From positions 61,901-125,900 of IMG/VR virus record IMGVR_UViG_3300021255_000062: a stretch of 64,000 bases of DNA; one strand, 5' to 3'. The notes under the pieces were generated by a model. That model made no database searches, had not been told where the DNA came from, and saw nothing but the letters and a program-made list of their open reading frames with translations. Both the position numbers and the translations under genes were made by a program. The stretch is from a virus. Taxonomy: Duplodnaviria; Caudoviricetes. Of the stretch, positions 2,921 to 61,298 are shown piece after piece; the first letter of the stretch is position 1, and the number at the start of each line of letters is the position of its first letter.

Positions 2921-3644
2921 AATTAAAATAGAAGATATAAGAAAGGCGGCGATAGAACATAATTGGACTTTACTTTCAGAAGAATATAAGAATTTAGATT
3001 CTGAATTAATATTTCGATGCAATGAAAGCCATAAAATTTATTTACCTTATAAAAAGGTAAGAGATAAATGGGAGTGTCCAATTTGTAAGCAAAATCAATA
3101 TAATAATTTTTCAAATGAAATAATACCTAAGAAAAAATCTACTCAGCGTACAATTGGTCTTGATCAAGCGACACATATAACAGGATATTCAATTTTCGAT
3201 GATGGAGAATTGGTTTATGCGGGAATTTTTGAAACTTGTGAAGAAGATGAAATATCTCGTGATATAGAAATAAAAAATTGGTTAATCCAATTGATTCAAA
3301 ATTGGAAACCAGACATAGTTGCATTAGAAGGAATACAACTTCAACAATTTAATAATAAAATGATAGGAGTTACAACTTATCAAACTCTTGCTAGATTACA
3401 GGGAATACTTATGGCAACTTGTCACGAACAAAAAATTGAATATGTAATTGTGCCGCCTGCTACGTGGCGCGCACACTGTCAGGTGAAGGGTAGAACCCGC
3501 GCAGATAGAAAGCGTTCAATGCAGATGAAAGTAAAGGAATGGTTTGATATAACTGTTTCTGATGATGTAGCTGATGCAATAGGTATTGGTAAATACGCAA
3601 ATGATAAACATAGAAGAAAAATAGAAATATTTAATTGGGAATAG
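2913..3644 (+). CDS. RuvC-like Holliday junction resolvase with N-terminal zinc ribbon
   Basis: IGLDQAT..TGYS, VALE and DDVADAIGIG motifs; N-terminal C..H/CPIC. Confidence 0.8.
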   Translation: MSKIKIEDIRKAAIEHNWTLLSEEYKNLDSELIFRCNESHKIYLPYKKVRDKWECPICKQNQYNNFSNEIIPKKKSTQRTIGLDQATHITGYSIFDDGELVYAGIFETCEEDEISRDIEIKNWLIQLIQNWKPDIVALEGIQLQQFNNKMIGVTTYQTLARLQGILMATCHEQKIEYVIVPPATWRAHCQVKGRTRADRKRSMQMKVKEWFDITVSDDVADAIGIGKYANDKHRRKIEIFNWE

Positions 3645-4078: not shown

Positions 4079-7000
4079 TTATCTAAAATTTCGTACTTGA
4101 GCTACATTCCTATAACCAGCACTTTTAACAATTTCTTTTTTAACCTTTGTTATAATTCTGTTTACGTCATAATCATCAGCAATTTTATCAACATTAATAT
4201 TTATATTAAATTCACTGTTGGCATAAGAATTATTACTTGAATTGGTTGATCCAATTACTTTGCTCAATATATCTCGAAGTGCTATAAAATTTTTAGTATC
4301 TGTTGAATTAAGTACCAATTCTGGTTTAGATGGAGTACCATCAAGCCAAGCAGGACCAGTATAATTCGCTAAACCACCTGTTGCAAATTTTAAAGCGGTA
4401 GCATTTTTATAATTTTTATGTTTTTTAATCTCAGCATAAGTATTAGGATTATTTTTCAAAGTCTTGATTGCACTAGCTAAACTTCCATTTCCATCCGGCC
4501 ATGTCTTGACTAAATTATACCTATCAATTCCTTCGGCACCTAAAATAGCTTTAAAAATATTATTCCAAGTAAATGGATCAGAACCACCTGTTCCATCAAC
4601 TAAATGCTGTAAGACGGAAGCTTTACCATAGCCTGCCTTTGATCCTAAGTCAAATAAATCATTAATATGCTCTTTCTTTACACTTGCTGGTTTAATTTGT
4701 TTTACTTCTCTTAATTTATTAATATAAGCATCATATTTAGCCTGTTTATCAGCAGCGGCCTTTGCAGCAGCGGCTTTCTCTGCCGCTTCCTTTTCTGCTT
4801 TTGCTGCGGCCGCAGCCTTTGCAGACTCATCAGCTGCCGCCTTTGTTTTTTCAACAGTAGCCTCGGTATATCCTCCCTTTTCAAGCTCATCCAAAGTGAA
4901 ACCTGCGGATTTTGCATTTCCATAAGATACATTTCCTGATTTAAAGGCTGAAGCCCCAAAACCTGCTTGTTTAATTTGTTGGTAAGAATAGCCCGATTGT
5001 TGAAAATCATTAACAGTATATTTACCTACCGTACGTAAATCACTCAAAGAAGCGCCATATATCTTTTGCGCTTGTGCAGCAGTATATTTATCTTGTTTTG
5101 CCGTTGCCAAGGTTTGAGTTTGTTGTTTTACATAAGTTTCAATAGTTGATATAATACTTTCTATGCTTTGGATTTTTGTGCCCAAATCATTTTGTTTCTG
5201 TTGGTTGGTTATTAAACCATTATAGAATTCATTAAATTCTGTTTCAATTTGCTCTCGTTCAGCTTTAGTAACTTCATCGTAATCATTTTTTGAATAATAG
5301 GCAGCACGAATTTCTTCCCCAAAAGCTTCCGGATTTGCCATCCACTCATTAACTTTTTCTATATTATTAACAGAATCAACTAATGTTTCTTGTAACTCAA
5401 TTTGACGTTCTCTCTGCTCTGCCGCGAGATCGGCTTGCTGTTGAAGTTTATCTAATAATTGATCTTCAAGAGAAGTTTGATAACTTTGTTGTGCTTCAGA
5501 GATTTCTTTTTCTAACTGAGCAATTTCAACTTGATTTCCTCCAGAAGTATCAGCACGTAATGCCGCTAATCTTTGCTGTTTCTGACTAATATCTCGTTCA
5601 GTTTTGGTATTCTCCTCTTGCTTTCTTCGCTCGTCAAGTTTTCCTTTAACATCATCTAAAAGTTTATTTAATGCTTCTTTAACTGAATCAGATAATTGTT
5701 TGATTTTATCTATTTTTTCTTTTTCATAGGTTTCACTTATTTCGGTTAGTTCTTTACCATAGTTTGCCCATTCATCCTGTAAAGATTCAAGTTGAGTATA
5801 ATATTCGGTAGCTTCTTTTGTAAGCTCTTCATAATTTTTCTGCAAGTCGGTGCTAGCTTCTTGTAATTTCTTCACCCAATCTTGTACGGCTTTAGCCATA
5901 TCACTGGTAATATTACCATTTGAACGTTCATTTTCAAAGGCTGTGGTATCAAACTGTATATCAATAGTGCCATCAGCTCGTTGAGTTATATTAGTAAACC
6001 TACGAGCCATATCTTCGGCAGACAGTTGTTTTTCAAGTTCTTCCTTATACTGCTTGTAGCCTGCTCGCTGAGTTTCATTTAAGGCAATACCACTTGCAGT
6101 TTCATTATATTCCTGTTGTAATTTGTTAATTTGATTTGCTAAGGCTGTATTATCGTTAATGGTTTTATTGTAATCAGTTATCTGTTTTTTCAGATTGTTT
6201 TGTTGAGTTTTTAAATTCTTGAGTTCTTTTTTCTGAGCCTTAGAAAGTTTTTTCTTCTTATTTAATTTATTAATTTTTTCTTGAACCTTATCAAGATTAG
6301 CTTGAGTAACTTCTCTATTCTTTACCGCATTATCATAATTTGTTTTTGCTTGTTTAGCTTGGTCAAGTTTAGCTTTTTTATTAGCTTTTTGAGTCGCTTG
6401 TGCATCTGCATTTAGTCTACTATTTACATCGGCTAAGAATTTCTTTTCATCTCCCGAATTTAAAATATTTTGTAGATTCTGTTGGCTCGCAGCGATTGCA
6501 TCTTGTCTATCTTCTAATAATTGATTTTGGGTTTCTAATTTACTTCTAAAATTAGTTAAATCTTTACTTTTTGAACCAGCCCCCGCAGCTAATTTTCCAG
6601 TAGAAAGCTGAGCCTTTAATAATTCTTCATAAGCATCATTTCTACTCATACGAGATTGAGCTTGGTCAATCCTTTGAGTTATATTCCAAATTCTAGTTAA
6701 CTCATTTTCCCAAGCAAAGAAAGTATTGTATAACTCTTCGCTAAACTTTTCAAGCGCCTCTTGAGCTTTCTCAATGTTATCTTCAGCGGTGTTTCTCTTT
6801 GAAATTCTATCATTGATTTCTTTATTAAGTGCATCTCTTAAGGCTTTACGTTCATCTTTGTTTTTAACCTTATTAAGCGCGGCTTGGTCAATAACATAAG
6901 TACCGTCTTGCTCTTTTATATAGCCAGCAGTAGCAACAGTTTTATTAACTGTTTTCTTTTTCTTGCCGCCCTTACTATAAGAAATTTGAACTGCTCCGCC

Positions 7001-10000
7001 TTCTTCAGCATTAAAAGCATCTTTATTAGCATTTTTCTTTTTAGCTTGTTGCGCAGCAGTACCTTTATCTAAATTAGTTAATTCTTTTCTAGCTTGATTT
7101 AACTGATCGGTATATAACTTAATTGCTTTTCTTGTATTATCAATAAAAGCATTACCGCCGCCAGTTGTGCCAGTAGTTTTTAATGTTGCTCGAAGTTCTT
7201 TAAGATATTTTTCGTAGGTTTTTTGATTTTTATCTGCTCTACGCTGCGCAGCATCGGCTAAACGTGTGATGTTTTCCCACCATACAACGATGTTAGAGAT
7301 TGCTGCTACGTTAGCTGCATCTTTCGAACTTCCGGTACCTTTTTTACTACTTTTACTCTTTTTAGATTTTTTACTGCTTTTACTACTTTTACTGCTTTTA
7401 CTACTCTTATTAGTACTTTTTGAAGGCTTGCGCCGCCCGCTATGAGAACCAGCATCAATACTTTTTCTCTTAAGTATATCCTCAGACTGCTCGTGTGTAT
7501 ATACAACAGCATCTTCGGGCAAGGTGATCATCTGAGGTCCACCAACACCCAAAATCATAGAACGATTCTCTGATGGAAGCCAAGCAATTTCATAGCCTTT
7601 TTCACCAGTTAACGTTAAACCACCCTTGTCTTTTGGCCCAATAGTACCATAAGGTCCTCTAGCAGCTGAACCAAAGGTCGGAGCAGAATGATATTGAATA
7701 TGATTATTTTTACCAGTTGCAGCCTTAGTAATTTTAACAGATTTAGTCCAAGGACCTCTAAAATCCGCAGTAATAGGAACTTTTAAATGGGGTACTTTCG
7801 ATTTTAAAGCATTCAAAGCATTTCTAGCACCGTTGTCTATTGCTGTCGGTATTTTTATAAGCTTAGCCTTTATAGAATTAATTGTATTTTGTGCGGTATT
7901 TGTAGCTTTAGTTTGAACAGTATGTGTAGATGTCGTATTTTTTGGTTGTGATGTCTGTTGTTTAGTTTGTTTTTGTTGCTTTGATTGAGTAGTTTTGGTT
8001 GTTACGTTAGTAACAACACCACTTAATTTAACTGGTTCACCAGAAACTTGACCATTTTTTTCTATCTTAGAAATAGAACCCTCTACGCCTTTTATTTTTT
8101 TCGCTTCATCCGCTACCTTAAGCGAGGTAGCTTCAACAAGAGCTTTAACAGTTGGCCCTTGTTTATTTCCACCAAATAATTTGCTAAGAGGATTTCCTTT
8201 CTCTTGCTCGCCAAATTCAAGTTTTCCTATAACAGAAACTGTAGGTTTGGTTGCAGGTTCTATAGTTTCTATTACATTTCCAATAATGTCCATTGTTCCA
8301 GTTCCAGGAATCTTAAGACCACCCGTTCCTCCCGTTCCTCCTGCCATCGTACCAACGGGAGTAATTCCTCTGGCTCCAGTTCCAACACGACCTACTGAAC
8401 CACTATTCTTTTTAATACGTTTTGTTTGATCGGCGTTCCAAACAACGGCATCTTTAGATATGTTAGCAAATTGCGGGCCATTAGAGCCGACCATATAGGC
8501 TTCATTACGCTTTGGCTCCCATACAAGTTCTTCTCCTTCTTCTCCAGTAAGGGTTGGACGTCCAGAAATTGTATATCCACCACGAGAGCCTCGTGCCATC
8601 GTGCCTGTTCGATGGAAAGCAGAATTGGGATTGTTTTGACCTGAAGCCTTTGCCGACTGTACACCACTTTTTACGTCTGTAATATTTGCGGTGGCATTGA
8701 TTTCAAAAGTTGTGTTTTTTAACTGATCCTGTAATGCTTTTTGGTTAAGAGTGACATTTCCCTCTTTTCCGGTAAGATCTCCCTCTTTAAATTTAGTACC
8801 AAGTCCATCATTGATGGCTTTTCTCATACTTTCGGGATCTATCTTCCATTCGTTCATTTTATTGACTATACCATTGATAGCATCACGTTGCTGAGATTCG
8901 TTTAGATTAGAAAGTTCTTGTCTATGTTCGGCTAAGTATGAACTTACTGCATTAGCAATATCTTTTCCAGTAGCTTCTCCGTTCTCTTCTTTGGTTTTAT
9001 TGTATACGTTTTGTAGTCCTTTATCATTAACATTATTCGCACCAAAAGTAAAGCCCGGTCCAAAAAGTTGGGAAGAGGTTGTTTGATTTAGATTAGATTC
9101 TTCGGATTTTTTTATTAATGCAGACCAATCAATTGATTTCATGGCATTAACAATTTGATCACCAATGGTTTGTCCAACTGTAACCCACTGGCTAGATTCG
9201 GTCATAGAGCTAATTTGTTCTTTAAACTCTTCAAGATTTAAACCCTCATCTAACCTTTGTCCTTCATAAGAAAAATCCTTTTTTGCATTTTGAGCTTGCT
9301 CATAAGCTTTATAAGCCATTTGAATGGCCTGCTCGTCATCCATACCCCTTTGTTTTGCATCGGATTGTACTTTTGAAATATCAAATCTTTTATTTTCATC
9401 TAAAAATTGTTCTTGTTTATAAAGGGGCTTTCCTTTAAAAACTTTTTTCTGATATTCACTAAATAATTTATCGTAATTAGTTATAGCCTTTCCGTCTTTG
9501 GTAACTTGTAAAGCATGAGCTTTTAATGCATCTACAGAAGTACCCGCAGCTGCAGCTAACTCTGCTAAAGCCTCCTCACCACCAGGAGCGCTTTCAATCA
9601 TTTCTATCTCACTGTTTGATAAAACTAATTTTCCATTCGTATCCTTATGTTCGTCTTTAAAATCATCTGTCGTAATAGCCTTTTTTAAATCATTGGCTGC
9701 TAACTTTGTCGCTTCAGTTTCATTATAATTTAAAATATCTTGTAAAAATAGCTTGGCATACTCTTCAGAAACTCCATAAGCTTTTTGGAAATAAGTCTCC
9801 AACTCATCGGTAGTTAACTCACCAAAATTCCATTGCATAAATCCATTCTTATCCCAACGGACCCTAAGGTCTTTAAATTTATTTCCGAGTGTTTCACTTA
9901 TCTCTTTTTCACTTACGGCTTTATCTATATTACTAATAATACTTTTTCCATTTATTCCTTTTTTAGCCATGATATCATCATAAGCTGCTTGGAAACCATT

Positions 10001-57655: not shown

Positions 57656-57727
57656 AGCCGAATCTCAGTTATGCTCTGAGGCCTAAAGGTTACAAATCTT
57701 TTGTTCTACTGATTAAACTAATTCGGC
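57656..57727 (-). tRNA. tRNA-Thr(UGU), atypical elbow
   Basis: GCCGAAT/ATTCGGC acceptor, loop TT-TGT-AA; D loop lacks GG; T loop AGCATAA. Confidence 0.65.
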
Positions 57728-59185: not shown

Positions 59186-59410
59186 ATTTTTCTCCTTCTT
59201 TTTCATTTTTTATATTATACTAAAAATATATAGAAAAGTAAAATTTTTAAAAGAAGGAGAGGTAATATAGACCTCTCCTATAACTGTTTTAGTTTAAAAA
59301 TTTTTCTTCTTATCTTTTTTACTACACCAGATGAATCAATATTTTTCCCATTACTTTTTAACTTATTGAGCCGATTTTCCATCAATAAAATTTTGTCATC
59401 TTTTGTCATA

Positions 59411-59731
59411 TTAAATACCTAATAATTCTTTTATTATAGAAATATCTATAGGGTCTGATTTTATTTTAAAGGTTGCTTCTGATTTTGGGTCTGGTTTTAC
59501 CTTAAAGGTTGCCCACGGCTCTTCATCAAGAAGTTCATAGTCAATACCCGCTAATTTTAAATATCTACCACACGCTGCAATAGCTTCATCATAGGCTTTG
59601 TCTAACTCCTGCTTATGACGCTGCGCGGCCTTGCGCTTCTTTTCCTCTTCTTCTTTATAGGAAGCTTCCGCCGCCAAGCACTCTTCAACAGTTTCATAAG
59701 TCTTACCTGTTAATTCACTTGAAATAATCAT
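59411..59731 (-). CDS. Hypothetical protein
   Basis: ORF downstream of the ribozyme. Confidence 0.65.
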   Translation of the reverse strand: MIISSELTGKTYETVEECLAAEASYKEEEEKKRKAAQRHKQELDKAYDEAIAACGRYLKLAGIDYELLDEEPWATFKVKPDPKSEATFKIKSDPIDISIIKELLGI

Positions 59732-59758
59732 ATTATTATCTTCCCTCTCTTTTTAAAT

Positions 59759-59809
59759 TAAGGTTTTAGTTTAAACAGCGCCGCCACGTGAAGGCAACCT
59801 CATGACGCC
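59759..59809 (-). ncRNA. Theta (minimal HDV-like) ribozyme B
   Basis: P1 GGCGUC/GGCGCU (G1.U), P2 UGAGGUU/AACCUUA, P3 GCC/GGC, L3 UUCACGU, J4/2 CUAA. Confidence 0.85.
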
Positions 59810-60615
59810 GGGGCGTGTCTTACGCCCAGAACGGGGAGACAGTAGTTTCAACCTGTCGATTGGATACTATGGATTGCGTAGACTTTATTAACTTATCACA
59901 ACTCAGAGTGACGACTCTCCTTCAAATTATTCGTCTCTTCATTTCTGACACTAATTTTAAGTTGCGCTGTGTTCACCCCACAGACGTTCCATTATTGCAT
60001 CTCACATTATTGTCTTAAGCGCGTTTTAATCCTTCGCCATCCCCAAAATGGATAATTGAAATAATAAAGGACTTTCATCCTACCTTATACTATCTTCAAG
60101 CATATTCAGCCAATGGGGAGATATGTCCGAAGACTAGGGAGCGACCCTAACCTAACATACCCCAGTTAATACATAACCATCATCCCATGCATCACTGGTT
60201 AGATGCAACTTTCACCCACCTTACGGTATTTTATAACATAAATCCAATCATGTCTTGATTTAAGTCCTGCCTTGGGCTACTCGTACGCGACATACAGGTC
60301 TTATACACGAATTTCTTCGCTTCATGGCAAAGGTCTTATTGGTATTTCGTAGGTTTGCACTCGACACCACTCGTTAGTACCTAACTCCGATTCGGCAAAA
60401 GCTATTAACTTTTGCTTCTATTATGACCCAACCCGCACTCTGCTTTTACTTGCGATAGCAAAGGCGCTACAACTTAGGTTTGGGGTATCACCCTCTACAT
60501 TAAGTGGATCACTCCACCCAACACAGCCGACTATCCACAGGTATCCCTGTTTTGTTTGTCCTGACCTATTCATCGCACCTCAGCTTACTGGTTCAGTAAC
60601 TCTGCACTGAGTTTT
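59810..60615 (-). ncRNA. Large (~0.8 kb) ncRNA, GOLLD-like
   Basis: No credible ORF; GAGUAGCCCAAG, GGGUGAAAG, GGGUCGCUCCC and GGCUGAAUA segments that I recall from GOLLD RNAs (unverified); size and tRNA-cluster context fit. Confidence 0.6.
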
Positions 60616-60631
60616 TATTATTCAATTATTT

Positions 60632-60685
60632 CATAGATTTTAGCGTAACCCGACACCGCCACGAGGAGGCAATCTATATGGTGTC
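60632..60685 (-). ncRNA. Theta (minimal HDV-like) ribozyme A
   Basis: P1 GACACC/GGUGUC, P2 UAUAGAUU/AAUCUAUG, P3 GCC/GGC, L3 UCCUCGU, GG for P1.1, J4/2 CUAA. Confidence 0.88.
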
Positions 60686-60767
60686 ATCTCAATTATCGGG
60701 TGGCGGCAAGAAAGGAAAAAAGTAACCGCCACCCTTACGAATATTTATCTTTAATTCTTATAAATAT

Positions 60768-60796
60768 ATTATATCAAAATTTTTTAAAATCGTCAA
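60768..60796 (-). promoter_or_regulatory. sigmaA promoter for the ribozyme/ncRNA unit
   Basis: TTGACG-17-TATAAT. Confidence 0.8.
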
Positions 60797-60800
60797 ATTT

Positions 60801-61097
60801 TCAGATGGTCTTTTCAACTAAAAAATTTTTCTTACGAGCAATTCGGTTAACGTCAAGTTTTAGTTGATGCGCATTTTTATAATCTTGAAAGGAAAAAATT
60901 AATAAAGAGTCTTTATCTTTGTATTCTATAAAGTCGTGAATAACAGCTTTATATTTAGTAATTAGAAGCTGCTTAAAATTATCTAAGTCTTTTTCAAAAA
61001 CTTCCGCCATTGCGCGCCAGTTCGTCCAAGTTTTAATATCGGCTACGTACCATTGTCCTGAACCACCCTGCCACTCGTCTACTCTCAAAAGCTGCAT
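60801..61097 (-). CDS. Hypothetical protein
   Basis: SD and promoter. Confidence 0.65.
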   Translation of the reverse strand: MQLLRVDEWQGGSGQWYVADIKTWTNWRAMAEVFEKDLDNFKQLLITKYKAVIHDFIEYKDKDSLLIFSFQDYKNAHQLKLDVNRIARKKNFLVEKTI

Positions 61098-61298
61098 TAT
61101 TTATTCCTCTCTTTCATTTTCTATATATATATTATATAAAAAATTTAGAAAAAATTCAAATTTTCAATGTCTGTAATAATTTTTTATTACCATCCAAACA
61201 ACATAAAAATCATACCAATAAAAAATGTGCAAGCTCCCGCCATCGACAGATAATAACCAACTTCTAACATAATTATTTGCTCCCTATAATAATATTTT

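Follow-up and report, generated by a model that had tools for sequence, protein, structure and literature searches.

The window analysed here is a 64,000-nt stretch of DNA that constitutes the second half of a 125.9-kb phage record (IMGVR_UViG_3300021255_000062), which is complete and carries direct terminal repeats. The DNA and RNA sequencing runs that contain this stretch were derived from cattle gut. On the minus strand of the window, a promoter, a leader hairpin, a theta-type ribozyme (ribozyme A), a ROOL RNA, 239 nt of further sequence, a second theta-type ribozyme (ribozyme B), a ribosome-binding site (RBS) and a gene encoding a 106-aa protein were found in this order. No credible gene was identified within 60800-59732 (-), and zero matches were returned when the region was searched by blastn against the GenBank phage collection.

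The promoter (60768..60796, -) is of the sigma-70 type, with a -35 element, a 17-nt spacer that includes TG and a -10 element. It agrees with the consensus at 11 of 12 positions and is the top-scoring site within 59300-61200, and a matching promoter is found at the equivalent position of a related locus, L003. Judged from the position of these elements, transcription would start at around 60761. Downstream of this putative start, a leader hairpin (60698..60734, -) consists of a 10-bp G+C-rich stem and a 17-nt pyrimidine-rich loop, with a folding energy of −21.1 kcal mol−1 (z = −3.0); its loop carries a 7-mer that may match the 3′ tail of 16S rRNA. The hairpin is common to the window and L003 (at about 3462-3498 of the latter, with a similar loop and compensatory changes in the stem) and was seen in these two loci only. 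As no minus-strand terminator was found between ROOL and the 106-aa gene, the transcript is expected to run into the downstream gene. The promoter, the hairpins and the two ribozymes were all confirmed where a first-pass annotation, made by a model from the letters of the window, had placed them, and its proposal of a bracketed large ornate RNA that possesses its own promoter is upheld.

Ribozyme A (60633..60685, -) fits all fields of the published descriptor of theta (minimal HDV-like) ribozymes, which was coded field by field from Supplementary Data 2 of PMC10879173. It features a P1 of 6 bp (6/6 paired), a P2 of 7-8 bp (8/8 paired), a P3 of 3 bp (3/3 paired), a P1.1 of 2 bp (CC with GG) and an L4 of 6 nt; cleavage is predicted 5′ of G60685, with the C at 60643 as the putative catalytic base. 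Ribozyme B (59759..59809, -) fits the descriptor except that the second pair of P1.1 is U-U: it has fully paired P1 (6/6), P2 (7/7) and P3 (3/3), an L4 of 5 nt and a P1.1 that is composed of one C-G and one U-U, with cleavage predicted 5′ of G59809 and the C at 59769 as the putative catalytic base. CUAA is present in both ribozymes, L3 matches its consensus (U, two bases, NCGY) and P4 is replaced by a short L4; in both, the P1, P2 and P3 strands follow the nested double-pseudoknot order. Two intact theta-type ribozymes had been proposed on first pass, and this held in full for ribozyme A and in all but the one U-U pair of P1.1 for ribozyme B.

In a descriptor scan of the entire 125.9-kb genome, ribozymes A and B were the sole matches, and zero matches were found in the genome by control scans in which the catalytic C was changed to A, G or U. 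A covariance model made from eight ROOL-linked ribozymes likewise recovered the same two ribozymes, and nothing else, from the whole genome. The proposed cmsearch check with Rfam models returned ROOL above threshold, and RF02682 (HDV-F-prausnitzii) on ribozyme A (20.9 bits, E = 0.31, below the 44-bit cut-off); this sub-threshold match begins exactly at 60685, while ribozyme B has no RF02682 match. RF02682 expects a P4 stem that is absent from both ribozymes, and a theta model is absent from Rfam. Neither ribozyme follows a tRNA, as had been stated at the outset: the 2 kb upstream of each cleavage site contain no tRNA (the nearest one being at 57656-57727), and according to the covariance model and the tRNA calls none of this phage's tRNAs carries a theta ribozyme.

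Between the two ribozymes, an Rfam search identified a full-length ROOL RNA of 587 nt (60049..60635, -; RF03087, model positions 1-574) at 311.7 bits (gathering score 99.1; E = 8e-71; not truncated), whereas GOLLD gave no Rfam match in the window, neither above its gathering score nor when hits up to E = 10 were admitted. The label of a GOLLD-like RNA, under which this RNA had first been described, is therefore replaced by ROOL. The inter-ribozyme stretch is 826 nt in length, and the predicted excised span (60685-59810) is 876 nt. It had been regarded as ∼820 nt of ORF-free structured RNA; it does harbour no credible gene in its 826 nt, but it is not one fold, as it is composed of ROOL (587 nt), a separate 3′ domain and a terminal hairpin.

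The 3′ domain (59833..60048, -; roughly 215 nt) features two conserved blocks, at ∼60045-59964 and 59899-59833, which pair mutually around a variable apical part of 64 nt. Among the first 125 loci nothing had matched the 239 nt after ROOL, and their fold z-score was −0.65; their interpretation as a non-conserved spacer was ruled out by the mutually pairing blocks in L187 and L189, which are ∼90% identical to those of the window and likewise surround a variable middle. Among the 32 predicted pairs, seven are changed on both sides, as counted over three DNA copies only. When viral contigs were scanned for the second block, the L189 contig was the only one found. In RNA-library contigs from four studies, the two blocks are linked by other, shorter linkers of 6-21 letters; as these contigs join both blocks, relatives of the 3′ domain are present in RNA libraries. 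The terminal hairpin (59811..59827, -; 6 bp with a 5-nt loop) stands one base before the second predicted cleavage site, and in L003 and L033 a hairpin of unrelated sequence is located 1-9 nt ahead of the 3′ ribozyme.

The 106-aa gene (59411..59731, -), which is preceded by an RBS, belongs to a small protein family that is encoded directly behind ROOL in almost every locus of the clade, with or without a 3′ ribozyme; where such a ribozyme is present, the small gene always follows it within ∼30-50 nt. The family (82-117 aa, with two conserved cysteines) consists of 39 clusters, all of them metagenomic, and its loci are the window, L003, L033, L121, L135, L139, L143, L144, L146, L151, L159, L165, L180, L184, L187, L189, L191 and L193. 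Neither Pfam nor PHROG yielded a match for the 106-aa protein, and no Pfam domain was found in any of the 39 clusters. The N-terminal 22 residues are nearly invariant in the family while the codons there vary synonymously, thus the small gene encodes a real protein. The AlphaFold model of the 106-aa protein (mean pLDDT of 74.5) features a short beta-hairpin, a helix spanning residues 15-60 and a poorly defined tail, and points to no function. Viral contigs were searched with the family alignment, a single-protein query having given no loci, and this selection by protein only re-found the ribozyme-ROOL-ribozyme-gene cassettes in L189, L191 and L193, plus those in L003 and L033. The small protein could be a partner of ROOL. 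Distant homologues (35-39% identity) in L194, L195 and L196 are preceded by a tRNA, not by ROOL. A second small gene family, which has a conserved C-terminal motif, is represented at 60801-61097 (-), upstream of the ROOL promoter of the window; in L123, L124 and L125 this family is found directly downstream of ROOL. The genes that flank ROOL are arranged differently from relative to relative.

Other ROOL loci were surveyed in two ways. From IMG/VR, 116 loci were retrieved via an anchor at the ROOL 3′ end, and in three of them (L003, L033 and L091) ribozymes adjoin ROOL; thus the pairing marks a subclade, and most ROOL RNAs get their ends in another way. A junction pattern, which combines the ribozyme core with the ROOL 5′ motif, found 8 viral and 58 metagenome loci; 49 of the latter hold a full theta ribozyme that stops no more than a few bases from ROOL. 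The viral loci in which a ribozyme abuts the ROOL 5′ end are L003, L033, L091 and L120-L125, with ROOL confirmed by Rfam in all nine viral loci checked. Five matches of the pattern in 185,579 species genomes were rejected as chance, since they are from unrelated phyla and none has a ribozyme.

To count pairs, 52 unique junctions were selected by the invariant core and the ROOL motif, irrespective of P1 and P2, and were scored by script. P1 is perfect in 47 and P2 in 34 of the 52 (maxima with shuffled partners: 26 and 12, respectively), these pair counts being inflated by relatedness; the distinct helices are nevertheless numerous, with 19 distinct P1 and 29 distinct P2 strands represented. The catalytic C and L3 are invariant across the ROOL-linked ribozymes. 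At least 11 further loci have a second ribozyme, 22-198 nt behind ROOL and in every case ahead of the same small gene family; the loci that harbour a 3′ ribozyme are L003, L033, L137, L143, L158, L159, L165, L184, L187, L189, L191 and L193. The double-ribozyme bracket recurs in other phages, with compensatory changes in P1 and P2. The 5′ ribozyme is located within ∼17 nt of the ROOL closing helix in nearly all loci, whether it is preceded by a promoter, by a tRNA-like element or by another ribozyme, and L189, with a gap of 66 nt between 5′ ribozyme and ROOL, is the sole exception seen. At L091 and L120, a tRNA follows ROOL in place of the 3′ ribozyme, so that in these two loci the ROOL 3′ end could be a product of RNase P.

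An 837-nt contig from a cattle-gut metatranscriptome aligns over its full length to 60673-59840, with 22 other letters and 7 gaps. By bridging all three elements, this contig places ribozyme A, ROOL and the 3′ domain on one molecule. The RNA evidence consists of assembled contigs, which are unable to show true ends, and RNA libraries can contain DNA; the ends of the 837-nt contig, which was found in one study and falls short of the predicted termini by 12 and 30 nt, are at most a weak hint in support of these termini. Contigs of four RNA libraries do not cover the leader (60675-60721) or 59500-59828, and since these are contigs this was taken neither as support for cleavage nor as evidence against a circle.

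Theta ribozymes were described as minimal HDV-like ribozymes of gut Caudoviricetes, with trimming of tRNA 3′ ends as their function; the name derives from cleavage no more than 5 nt from the 3′ end of a tRNA, a tRNA is not required by the authors, and 526 hits away from tRNAs were given no function (Kienbeck et al. 2024, PMC10879173). The two ribozymes of the window resemble them in the nested double pseudoknot, the P3/L3 consensus, the short L4, the catalytic C that heads J4/2 and the habitat, that is, animal-gut phages rich in tRNA genes. They differ in that neither follows a tRNA, in that the pair brackets ROOL and in that the U-U pair in P1.1 of ribozyme B is excluded by the descriptor. 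The 5′ ribozyme of ROOL in L033 is identical, letter for letter, to entry 1846 in the table of ‘isolated’ ribozymes of that study, and near relatives of other ROOL ribozymes are listed in the same table, one of them with 614 occurrences (PMC10879173).

The U-U form of P1.1 was found in 8 of the 13 ribozymes located 3′ of ROOL, in combination with P1 and P2 helices that differ from one ribozyme to another, while P1.1 is fully paired in all printed entries examined from the published theta list. As the published descriptor excludes this variant, theta ribozymes are probably under-counted. The variant is common, being found at ROOL 5′ ends and also behind tRNAs (L122): a U-U pair in P1.1 together with a 5-6-nt L4 starting with UU was observed in L122 (181-130 and 9507-9452, -), L120, L140, L142, L153, L166, L167 and L182. 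In L124, a theta-like ribozyme at 8133-8187 (-; 31.6 bits) has a P1 that begins with A, not G.

ROOL (RF03087; Weinberg et al. 2017, PMC5737381) assembles into an octameric nanocage (Kretsch et al. 2025, PMC12286853), the homo-octameric cage being known for ROOL env-120 only; GOLLD also forms a nanocage (PMC12286853). The RNA of the window resembles other ROOL RNAs in its full-length match with all helices, in being phage-borne and in its position beside a tRNA array, but as predicted from its sequence the 5′ ribozyme and the 3′ domain would stay on the ROOL core. With GOLLD it shares the features of a large ornate phage RNA near tRNAs, but its sequence is that of ROOL. Neither a maturation route nor ribozyme neighbours are described in the ROOL papers (PMC5737381 and PMC12286853), the ROOL-theta pairing is unmentioned in PMC10879173, and full-text literature searches returned nothing relevant. 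ROOL and theta ribozymes are each known, and it is their pairing that appears new in the literature searched.

The 5′ ends of certain retrotransposon RNAs, that of R2 among them, are generated by HDV-like ribozymes. The ribozymes of R2 type cut at their own 5′ end and stay as a structured 5′-hydroxyl head, as ribozymes A and B would also do, but they belong to eukaryotic, protein-coding RNAs, with no two-ribozyme bracket around a non-coding RNA. Retrotransposon HDV-like ribozymes are mentioned in passing in PMC11331408.

What is observed at the locus, namely conserved and covarying motifs, a syntenic order and one RNA-library contig that joins the parts, makes it probable that a linear, end-protected ROOL RNA is freed by two self-cleavages of a transcript made from a strong promoter of its own; the cleavage itself, the chemistry of the ends, the role in stabilising the RNA and the start of transcription are deduced. 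The primary transcript would begin at ∼60761 and read through into the small gene, and ribozymes A and B would cut it, probably co-transcriptionally and with no protein needed. Three products would arise: (i) a leader of ∼76 nt that carries its hairpin; (ii) a linear 876-nt RNA (60685-59810), in which ribozyme A is followed by ROOL, then by the 3′ domain and last by the terminal hairpin; (iii) an mRNA with ribozyme B at its 5′ end. The second of these is the species that double cleavage had been predicted on first pass to release, and the predicted sites indeed bound 876 nt. HDV-type cleavage leaves a 5′-hydroxyl and a 2′,3′-cyclic phosphate, which are substrates of RtcB, and such ends are poor substrates for 5′-end-dependent and for 3′-exonucleolytic decay. 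The 876-nt RNA would be expected to start with a 5′-hydroxyl and to have C59810 as its 3′ end, with a 2′,3′-cyclic phosphate; ribozyme A would be retained on the ROOL 5′ end and the terminal hairpin would close the 3′ end. Such processing would probably benefit ROOL by defining its ends for cage assembly, by detaching it from the mRNA and by shielding it against end-dependent decay.

Protected ends fit the known stability and abundance of ROOL. In L. salivarius, mature ROOL begins 225-450 nt downstream of its promoter and is a very stable RNA (PMC5643018); a promoter at such a distance fits with 5′ processing in general. Members of the theta family cleave in vitro (PMC10879173). The second cut is dispensable, as in several relatives the gene comes directly behind ROOL and no 3′ ribozyme is present. 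A more far-reaching version, which we regard as speculative and rather unlikely, holds that the cassette is one functional unit, in which the strictly syntenic small protein, with its predicted 45-residue helix and invariant N-terminal motif, would be the long-sought partner or cargo of the cage and ribozyme-made ends would be needed for cage assembly or for a later step such as ligation; a large share of the orphan theta ribozymes in gut viromes would in that case serve the maturation of ROOL.

Alternatively, the ribozymes might mainly serve their neighbours, with ribozyme B heading the mRNA with a structured 5′-hydroxyl end, ribozyme A freeing a leader small RNA, and the ends of ROOL being a by-product. 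The presence of the same small gene within ∼30-50 nt after every 3′ ribozyme, the absence of this ribozyme in relatives where ROOL itself adjoins the gene, and the conservation of the leader hairpin in L003 with covariation in its stem are all in line with such a role; however, that hairpin is confined to the window and L003, and it is to the ROOL closing helix (within ∼17 nt in nearly all loci, with L189 as the one exception seen) that the 5′ ribozyme keeps, whatever is upstream. As the main purpose of the ribozymes this is unlikely, and service to the neighbours and maturation of ROOL are not mutually exclusive.

Less likely still, and quite improbable in our judgement, is a reading in which ribozyme A, ribozyme B or both are relics that no longer cut and the ends of ROOL are made by host RNases. 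The U-U pair in P1.1 of ribozyme B does fall outside the published descriptor, and the majority of ROOL loci are without a ribozyme; yet P1 and P2 show strong compensatory variation over dozens of loci, the catalytic C and L3 are invariant, and the U-U variant recurs with different helices, also behind the tRNAs of L122. Relics would not keep the covariation, the invariant positions and a recurring variant.

The circularisation put forward by the first-pass annotation, that is, the joining of the excised 876-nt RNA into a functional circle by a host RtcB-type ligase, would draw on two ribozyme-made ends of the HDV type, which RtcB accepts, but it is very improbable given that genome searches found neither RtcB nor an Rnl2-type RNA ligase in the phage (whose sole ligase is an ATP-dependent DNA ligase), that the termini are unpaired while the ROOL closing helix joins 60629 to ∼60053, that many relatives are without a 3′ ribozyme and hence unable to circularise in this manner, and that the long RNA-library contig is plain linear and the back-joint (59810 to 60685) is not among the contigs of the four RNA libraries, which weakens the case only, since contigs can miss rare forms. 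The suggested check for rtcB in the phage genome is included in these searches and was negative; the search with PF09511 (T4 Rnl1) was blank, but so were those of the control genomes. The only relatives of this DNA ligase are distant ones, from phages of Bacillota.

ROOL is among the largest bacterial and phage non-coding RNAs and forms a striking cage made of RNA only; to our knowledge, neither a function nor a route of maturation has been established for it. For theta ribozymes, a role is proven at tRNA 3′ ends only, and hundreds of ‘isolated’ copies were left without an explanation. The locus suggests an origin for the ROOL ends and a purpose for many orphan phage ribozymes: release of a linear ROOL RNA by two self-cleavages, as proposed here for the window and its relatives, would let ROOL acquire defined ends without the help of a protein and would give the orphan ribozymes a role that can be tested. 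The 3′ RNA domain and the small protein are two further conserved companions of ROOL, and could guide work on the function of the cage.

A few additional features were noted around these cassettes. In L033 (4975-5056), L137, L158, L164, L165, L175, L181, L184 and L091 (12567-12512), the ROOL 5′ ribozyme is preceded, ∼70-370 nt upstream, by a third ribozyme, which in many cases bears a P4-like insert; given such a third ribozyme, a further short RNA would be released between the two 5′ ribozymes. In L120 and L122, two T-arm-like hairpins, unreported by any tRNA caller, are found within 90 nt before the ROOL 5′ ribozyme, and may represent a tRNA-like element that likewise owes its 3′ end to the ribozyme. 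Elsewhere in the window, a weak PolyA_pol match at ∼5078-5290 (-; G000:C1:66978-67190) is positioned inside an open frame of 3609 aa, by which the phage encodes a giant protein.
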